From Escherichia coli (GTDB lineage Bacteria > Pseudomonadota > Gammaproteobacteria > Enterobacterales > Enterobacteriaceae): DNA of 64,000 nucleotides. Each line of letters begins with the position of its first letter. Positions within the stretch are counted from its first letter, which is position 1. The notes under the pieces are model-generated. The model was not told the DNA's origin. It ran no database searches and worked only from the letters and a program-made list of their open reading frames with translations. A program made the translations under genes and the position numbers. The DNA lies in the NCBI RefSeq assembly GCF_030013595.1, contig NZ_CP122768.1. One strand, given 5' to 3'. Positions 38,013 to 38,716 of this stretch are shown piece after piece.

Positions 38013-38023
38013 GGAAGGGAAAC

Positions 38024-38075
38024 TTGACTTCATATTGTGATGTCATACTATTGATGTCATAAAGTGAAGTCATAA
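38024..38075. promoter_or_regulatory. Putative promoter/operator of the hicAB-like operon
   Basis: -35-like TTGACT and -10-like TACTAT with four direct repeats of GAnnTCATA at roughly 13-bp spacing. Confidence 0.45.
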
Positions 38076-38084
38076 GGACATGCC

Positions 38085-38360
38085 ATGAGAACCCAGGTAC
38101 AGGCTTTACGGAAGAAACAAAAAAATACATTGGATCAAATATTTAAATCTCCTGTTCCTCAAGGGATTAAGTGGTCTGATATAGAGTCACTGGTTAAAGC
38201 ATTAGGCGGAGAAATTAAGGAAGGAAGAGGTTCGCGTTGTAAGTTCATACTAAATATGAGCGTTGCGTGTTTCCATCGGCCTCATCCGTCGCCAGATACC
38301 GATAAAGGCGCTGTAGAAAGCGTTCGTGACTGGTTACTAAGTATAGGGGTAAAACCATGA
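38085..38360 (+). CDS. HicA-like toxin (type II toxin-antitoxin system)
   Basis: 91 aa basic protein with GRGSRCKF...HRPHP core resembling HicA; 4-nt overlap with downstream antitoxin gene. Confidence 0.6.
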   Translation: MRTQVQALRKKQKNTLDQIFKSPVPQGIKWSDIESLVKALGGEIKEGRGSRCKFILNMSVACFHRPHPSPDTDKGAVESVRDWLLSIGVKP

Positions 38361-38716
38361 TCAAACTGAAGACACCAAACTCTATGGAGATTGCCGGGCA
38401 ACCTGCAGTTATCACTTACGTGCCAGAACTGAATGCATTTCGTGGCAAATTCCTGGGCTTGTCAGGTTATTGTGATTTTGTCTCTGACAGTATTCAGGGG
38501 CTGCAAAAAGAAGGGGAGCTTTCCCTGCGAGAGTATCTTGAGGATTGTAAAGCTGCGGGTATTGAGCCGTATGCGCGTACAGAAAAGATTAAGACCTTTA
38601 CATTACGCTATCCAGAATCGCTGAGTGAACGCCTTAATAATGCGGCTGCGCAGCAACAAGTCTCTGTAAATACTTATATTATTGAAACGCTAAATGAGCG
38701 TTTGAATCATTTATAA
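38357..38716 (+). CDS. HicB-like antitoxin with C-terminal ribbon-helix-helix
   Basis: 119 aa; C-terminal FTLRYPESLSERLNNAAAQQQVSVNTYIIETL resembles RHH DNA-binding domains. Confidence 0.6.
   Translation: MIKLKTPNSMEIAGQPAVITYVPELNAFRGKFLGLSGYCDFVSDSIQGLQKEGELSLREYLEDCKAAGIEPYARTEKIKTFTLRYPESLSERLNNAAAQQQVSVNTYIIETLNERLNHL

Follow-up and report, generated by a model that had tools for sequence, protein, structure and literature searches.

What is known of the mechanism of HicA toxins all rests on one essential histidine. The locus described here raises the question of how to read a HicA-like protein which has an arginine in its place, and which belongs to a large conserved clade that never has that histidine: is it a dead toxin, or a toxin whose active site is built otherwise? 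This family-level question outweighs the locus itself, which is an ordinary chromosomal toxin-antitoxin cassette, already annotated, in the variable interval that separates yhhJ from nikR. The cassette lies in a 64-kb stretch of Escherichia coli DNA, analysed as a whole and hereafter called the window. Both of its genes are already named by RefSeq (PGAP), the first one as 'type II toxin-antitoxin system HicA family toxin'.

Gene organisation and chromosomal site

The earlier note on this DNA, made from the letters alone, had described two overlapping small genes after yhhJ, at a place where K-12 has the rhsB element. Both points were confirmed. The pair is located directly 3' of the yhhJ stop codon (38012) and is convergent with nikR (38836..39237, minus strand). 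The two open reading frames, of 91 and 119 codons, are on the same strand, start with ATG and share a 4-bp ATGA overlap (Table 1). Region 37800-39000 of the window was compared with K-12 using blastn: the identity ends at the yhhJ stop and restarts at 38830. The 817 bp of the cassette have as their K-12 counterpart a block of about 6.7 kb, rhsB-yhhH-yrhC-yhhI, the K-12 gene order at the site being nikR-rhsB-yhhH-yrhC-yhhI-yhhJ.

Between the antitoxin gene and nikR, a hairpin followed by a T-rich run was detected, which is probably a bidirectional terminator. The fold of positions 38717-38835 has a z value of -3.0, and 0 of 200 shuffles fold as well. This hairpin belongs to the cassette and is hence missing from K-12. 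No Rfam RNA family was matched within 37900-38950.

Table 1. Features of the cassette, in window coordinates
Feature	Position	Strand	Basis or remark
Whole cassette	38013..38829	+	present here, absent from K-12 (blastn)
Sigma-70-type promoter: TTGACT (38024-29), 16-nt spacer, TACTAT (38046-51)	38024..38051	+	consensus scan; predicted
Four putative operator sites TGAnnTCATA	38025..38074	+	8-bp palindromic core TGA-NN-TCA in each
Site 1, TGACTTCATA	38025-34	+	
Site 2, TGATGTCATA	38038-47	+	
Site 3, TGATGTCATA	38052-61	+	
Site 4, TGAAGTCATA	38065-74	+	
Shine-Dalgarno-like AAGGA	38074..38078	+	6 nt 5' of the toxin ATG; read from the sequence
hicA-like toxin gene, 91 aa	38085..38360	+	Pfam, PHROGs, PGAP, AlphaFold2 model
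Codons G49-S50-R51	38229..38237	+	within GRGSRCKF; Arg51 at the start of β2
Codons H64-R65-P66-H67-P68-S69-P70-D71-T72-D73-K74-G75	38274..38309	+	near-invariant β3-α2 loop
hicB-like antitoxin gene, 119 aa	38357..38716	+	Pfam, profile search, AlphaFold2, Foldseek
15-bp perfect AT-rich hairpin, then T-rich run	38771..38803	.	terminator scan

Family and fold of the toxin

The earlier note had taken the product of the first gene for a HicA-like protein and had proposed a search with the HicA profile. The Pfam family HicA_toxin (PF07927) was matched by residues 30-80 with an i-Evalue of 3.7e-9, over positions 1-52 of the 58 of the model, and the homologues of the toxin carry a precomputed match to the same family. 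Among the PHROGs, a 'toxin' family was matched over the full length at 2e-26. An AlphaFold2 model built with 45 homologues reached a pLDDT of 94. It comprises N-terminal helices at residues 2-6 and 10-19, followed by α(30-39)-β(43-46)-β(51-56)-β(59-64)-α(74-86), and residues 30-86 thus display the dsRBD-like α1-β1-β2-β3-α2 fold of the HicA family. Residues 1-28 form a two-helix N-terminal extension specific to the clade, in which L16, F20 and P23 are invariant.

A single-sequence phmmer search of the toxin against the PDB gave no match, and the toxin profile against the PDB retrieved only a marginal HicA match, 9svk, with an E-value of 0.65. The 9svk alignment was used for the residue register only; it agrees with the Pfam coordinates and with the β2 start in the model. 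With K-12 HicA, neither phmmer nor hhalign produced a meaningful alignment of the toxin. The hhalign comparison of the clade profile with K-12 HicA returned a 15-column match between different helices, which is spurious and was discarded. The NCBIfam and PADLOC scans matched no model to either protein of the pair.

Family and fold of the antitoxin

The second gene had been described as encoding a HicB-like protein with a ribbon-helix-helix (RHH) tail, and this description is well supported. The HicB family of Pfam (PF05534) was matched by residues 60-112 with an i-Evalue of 3.5e-15, and residues 76-116 gave weak matches to the Arc, CopG and FitA ribbon-helix-helix families. The PHROGs family phrog_9151, a HicB-like antitoxin, was matched at 6e-13. 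A profile of 35 antitoxin sequences retrieved AmrZ (3.4e-4) and Arc (5.6e-4) from the PDB. The AlphaFold2 model (pLDDT 90) comprises strands at residues 9-12, 15-22, 27-32 and 40-43, a helix at 46-67, a linker and two C-terminal helices.

The best structures obtained with Foldseek were 6g26_B, 4p7d, 4p78_A, 6u0i and 6hpb_B, with Arc for the tail, and the best proteins were B. pseudomallei HicB, Y. pestis HicB3, E. coli HicB and TTHA0281. The HicB matches reach a probability of up to 1.00 with E-values of only 9e-3 to 0.2; the global rmsd is high owing to a different domain orientation. The tail superposes on Arc with a TM score of 0.74 relative to Arc. The C-terminal DNA-binding domain that characterises the HicB family is thus present here in its RHH form.

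Promoter and putative operator

A promoter was predicted upstream of the toxin gene, together with four sites of the TGAnnTCATA type (Table 1). The sites are spaced by 13, 14 and 13 bp. Together they overlie both promoter boxes (-35 and -10) and the predicted transcription start, the promoter lying atop sites 1 and 2 and the start being in site 3. The motif TGANNTCATA has four matches in total on the two strands of the 64-kb window, all of them these sites, for 1.67 expected over the whole window. Four sites within 50 bp on one strand are far beyond chance. The four evenly spaced repeats that the earlier note had seen over a TTGACT/TACTAT promoter are therefore confirmed, and the motif is kept across genera.

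Among 27 homologous loci of enterobacteria and Pasteurellaceae, 69 exact matches to TGANNTCA were counted in the 110 bp upstream, versus 0.8 in shuffles. The usual positions of the sites in these homologues are -71, -58, -32 and -19 from the ATG, corresponding to a spacing of 13, 26 and 13; in E. coli these four sites are present too, drawn together to 13/14/13. In the other genera, TTGACT falls within site two, and the third site, with which the proximal pair begins, is immediately preceded by a TATAAT-like box. Distant clade members (L035-L082, 110 bp upstream) carry over the promoter palindromes of the AGTACCA-N5-TGGTACT type or GATATCA palindromes, which replace TGAnnTCA. A change of palindrome in distant clades is to be expected where operator and RHH domain co-evolve. 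Repressors of the Arc type recognise short, repeated half-sites as dimers, and we infer that the antitoxin would repress its own operon through the four sites.

Arginine in place of the catalytic histidine

In the HicAs that have been validated, the essential histidine is His23 in E. coli, His24 in B. pseudomallei, N. gonorrhoeae and S. meliloti, His28 in Y. pestis and His36 in S. pneumoniae (PMC11594946, PMC12297915), the gonococcal and S. meliloti HicAs being canonical His proteins (PMC11594946, PMC12297915). This catalytic histidine is located at the start of β2 (PMC12297915). In the toxin described here, the G-x-H or GSH motif that the HicA family has at the β2 start reads GSR, the position being occupied by Arg51. 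The earlier note had aligned GSR with GSH by eye, and rightly so: in the profile alignment to the solved HicA 9svk, R51 is aligned to the His of GSH, and in the AlphaFold2 model it is the first residue of β2 (residues 51-56). The glycine that the family conserves two positions ahead of the catalytic residue (Gly22 in B. pseudomallei and N. gonorrhoeae) is retained as G49.

Conservation was then examined at increasing distances. In the 45 aligned homologues, W30, G49, S50, R51, P66, H67, P68, D73 and G75 are invariant, and H64, R65, S69, P70, D71, T72 and K74 are conserved at 90% or more. An exhaustive profile search retrieved 2439 clusters at 50% identity, 989 of which have E ≤ 1e-10. G49-S50-R51 and the FHRPHPSPDTDKG loop hardly vary over this clade, which comprises about 2400 clusters, and among the best 150 of the 2439 clusters the combination of GSR with (F/Y)H(R/K)PH is overwhelmingly predominant. 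The 119 neighbours of a distant clade member read FHRPHP in 116 cases. At the level of genomic copies, GSR is found in 79 of 80 species-level loci, the exception (L032) being a two-stop pseudogene that reads GFR.

The existence of a His-containing sister group was considered and rejected: the only GSH relative, P0203, is a singleton, whose 119 nearest neighbours all carry GSR/HRPHP. This metagenomic protein of 124 aa has both GSH for GSR and PYP for PHP, which may reflect two genuine substitutions or an error of sequencing; as far as the sequences tell, it is no evidence for covariation.

GSR is thus a hallmark of the clade and not a lesion of this copy, and the conservation pattern is one of purifying selection acting on particular residues rather than of decay. 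Where the earlier note had left the choice between an altered and an inactive RNase, 'altered' is the better description of the two, because GSR is invariant across the whole clade. In the literature, we found no paper noting or testing the Arg clade, and no toxicity or RNase test for any of its members. In a paper on 'hicA/hicB' expression in O157:H7, which cites only K-12-type work, the hicAB locus that was measured is not identifiable.

Distribution in E. coli and in other genomes

The cassette is carried by 2071 of the 5426 complete E. coli genomes and is always chromosomal. The order yhhJ-hicAB-nikR is also found in Citrobacter sedlakii (L006), and nikR lies downstream of the pair in the Enterobacter (L007) and Klebsiella (L008) copies. 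Because this nikR/yhhJ neighbourhood is kept in other genera, the toxin-antitoxin pair is probably ancestral at the site, that is its older occupant, and the K-12 Rhs block derived.

In the O157:H7 strain YB14-1 (L084, 2254-3715), a class II aldolase, an HPr-family protein and an FGGY kinase are encoded between the pair and nikR; with this insertion the variable site has a third type of occupant, and the toxin is intact there. Some database records also called for attention. NZ_CP026085.1 (H42), a 4.83-Mb record labelled 'DH5alpha', has the cassette though K-12 has rhsB, which makes the strain label doubtful. NZ_CP134663.1 and NZ_OL790696.1 (H96, H97) are E. coli records of 4.8-4.9 Mb filed as plasmids in PLSDB.

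Conservation extends over 353 species, and together with the profile matches it ruled out that the two genes are chance open reading frames. A homologous antitoxin follows the toxin in essentially all of the 80 species-level loci, mostly with a 4-bp overlap. The clade extends over Alpha-, Beta- and Gammaproteobacteria, Desulfovibrionales, Cyanobacteria-related lineages, Acidobacteriota and Planctomycetes. It is also represented on 223 plasmids, among them replicons of 5.7, 12.8 and 35 kb, and 51 phage records, of Ralstonia phages and of Burkholderia phage ST79, contain it as well. This presence on plasmids and phages would fit an addiction or defence module.

In Serratia silvae (L024, 3998-4633), toxin and antitoxin are fused into a single 211-aa open reading frame by a change near the toxin C-terminus, which illustrates how the fused hicAB class occurs in nature. 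For the homologues P0053, P0059, P0061 and P0079, some database entries read 'hexulose-6-phosphate synthase', a propagated mis-annotation.

Toxin-null alleles

Among the 80 loci, five toxins are broken next to an intact antitoxin: L004 (Q26*), L020 (W30*), L032 (two stops), L022 and L028 (both without start codon). A single antitoxin is frameshifted, in an endosymbiont whose toxin is also without a normal start. The excess of toxin-null over antitoxin-null alleles is one of small counts and, for E. coli, of a sample of 60 rows.

Two independent toxin-null alleles are widespread in E. coli, both with a full-length antitoxin. In one of them, codon 2 of the toxin is TAA (L083, NZ_CP077649.1, 384-722, about 95% identical to 38013-38365 of the window). 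The TAA allele is without exactly one 14-bp operator unit, so that three sites remain and TACTAT is removed. It accounts for 23 of the 60 rows (about 38%) in a spread sample of E. coli carriers. PGAP calls in this allele a 76-aa toxin starting from a CTG codon. The other allele has a 1-bp deletion within the G49-S50-R51 codons (window 38229-38237), resulting in a 55-aa product, P0110 (L086-L088, 1501-1668), for which the assembly index has 858 blocks.

That the toxin is repeatedly lost while the antitoxin is spared suggests that the toxin is harmful. Three indirect observations converge on this point: a homologous antitoxin always comes after the toxin, the inactivation is lopsided, and two toxin-null alleles have become widespread in E. 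coli.

Proposed mechanism and alternatives

The explanation that we retain, with a probability of about 0.7, is a working, self-repressed type II HicAB toxin-antitoxin module, the toxin of which is directed at RNA and has a remodelled active site; toxicity, RNase activity, catalytic residues and repression are what we infer in it. The sigma-70 promoter (38024-38051) would give a bicistronic mRNA with a short leader, on which the translation of both genes would be coupled via the ATGA overlap. The N-terminal HicB domain of the antitoxin would bind and neutralise the toxin, and its RHH tail would dimerise and fill the four TGAnnTCA sites over the promoter, turning the operon off. The toxin itself would inhibit growth by targeting RNA, Arg51 acting with His67 and/or His64 after β3. 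These two histidines of the HRPHPSPDTDKG loop would be the best candidates for acid-base chemistry. In canonical HicA, a histidine after β3 is reported to be near the catalytic one in space (PMC12297915), and the proximity of R51 and H67 supposed here is carried over from it by analogy. A catalytic role of H67 is nevertheless a guess, because in the gonococcal HicA the H40A substitution of the histidine after β3 does not abolish toxicity (PMC12297915).

The invariant replacement of His by Arg could also be read as the sign of a toxin that is harmful but not a nuclease by itself, either because it binds RNA or the ribosome stoichiometrically or because it needs a partner, for example the ribosome, for cleavage. 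It would then resemble RelE, which is not known to have a classical acid-base pair. The N-terminal extension, with its invariant L16, F20 and P23, would provide a surface missing from the canonical HicAs of 58-66 aa, and the recurrent toxin-null alleles, which make the protein appear costly, are compatible with such an action. However, the near-invariant H64, H67, D73 and K74 beside the R51 strand look like an active site and not like a mere binding face, and we consider this alternative unlikely. Slightly less probable still is that the first protein has ceased to be a toxin, the pair having been domesticated as a two-protein repressor or persisting by drift as a harmless remnant. The catalytic histidine is indeed missing, and E. 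coli appears fine without the toxin, as seen from the sampled carriers stopping at codon 2 and from the other, frameshifted lineage. Moreover, HicAB-1 of P. putida (PP_1480-1479), whose PP_1480 may or may not belong to the Arg clade, was reported to be non-toxic upon deletion of the antitoxin (PMC7280312). But drift cannot give more than 20 invariant or near-invariant residues across phyla, plasmids and phages. The losses also strike the toxin and spare the antitoxin, the opposite of what is predicted for an inert protein, and the presence on small plasmids fits addiction.

As to the repeats, one may ask whether they are an operator of the antitoxin at all, or a chance AT-rich periodicity, or sites for another regulator such as NikR, whose gene is near this region. 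Yet TGANNTCA travels with the toxin-antitoxin pair into genera with unrelated neighbouring genes, only 3-5 of the 80 loci having yhhJ and nikR at their sides; its 69 matches are far above the 0.8 expected; the operator sequence shifts together with the RHH clade; and a palindromic core of 8 bp is what an RHH dimer would be expected to bind, if Arc and AmrZ are taken as models. We hold this last alternative to be very improbable, and keep the four repeats as the putative operator of a probably self-repressed HicAB module.

Significance

The pair is HicAB by profile, fold and architecture, and the catalytic histidine, a functionally defining feature of HicA, is missing clade-wide. That the GSR proteins would form a mechanistically distinct clade on the HicA fold, with a new catalytic arrangement or with a non-nucleolytic or partner-dependent action, is a tentative proposal, to which we give somewhat less than an even chance. 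A new arrangement could possibly associate Arg51 with His67/His64, Asp73 and Lys74, perhaps aided by the N-terminal helices. If the proposal is true, about 2400 clusters labelled 'HicA family toxin', including the copy present in more than one third of E. coli genomes, differ mechanistically from every HicA studied. The Arg clade keeps its antitoxin, its operator and signs of harm, and it occurs in E. coli O157:H7, many commensals, plasmids and temperate phages. K-12, being without the cassette, is a clean host for testing whether the HicA fold allows a second catalytic solution. Finally, the intact allele, the three-site allele stopped at codon 2 and the GSR-frameshift allele constitute natural material on the decay of chromosomal toxin-antitoxin systems.

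Comparison with known systems

The classical hicAB systems of B. pseudomallei (PDB 6g26, 4c26) and Y. pestis (HicA3-HicB3, 4p78, 4p7d) share only 16-18% identity with the pair described here. Their His24 and His28, respectively, correspond to Arg51. Compared with both, the toxin has in addition the 28-residue N-terminal helical extension and a HRPHPSPDTDKG loop that is 3 residues longer, and the operator comprises four sites instead of two.

E. coli K-12 HicAB (b4532/b1438, PDB 6hpb) is an unrelated locus, located at 1.509 Mb, in which hicA and hicB are separated by a 46-bp gap (K-12 annotation) whereas the two genes overlap here. K-12 HicB has an HTH domain and not an RHH, its HicA uses His23, and the operon has two promoters (PMC11594946).

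The Class 4 hicAB systems (Gerdes 2024, mBio 15:e03293-23) have exactly the same architecture: a bicistronic hicA-hicB operon, closely linked genes and a HicB with a C-terminal RHH. The present locus is likewise bicistronic, with the toxin gene first and overlapping the antitoxin gene. In that survey, Class 4 splits into two clusters, and catalytic residues are left undiscussed, the words 'histidine' and 'catalytic' occurring zero times (Gerdes 2024, mBio 15:e03293-23).

Lastly, it is with the C-terminal 45 residues of the antitoxin that Arc and AmrZ align, at the E-values given above. Unlike in these two repressors, the RHH is here fused to a HicB domain, and the predicted operator is made of four TGA-NN-TCA cores located 13-14 bp apart.
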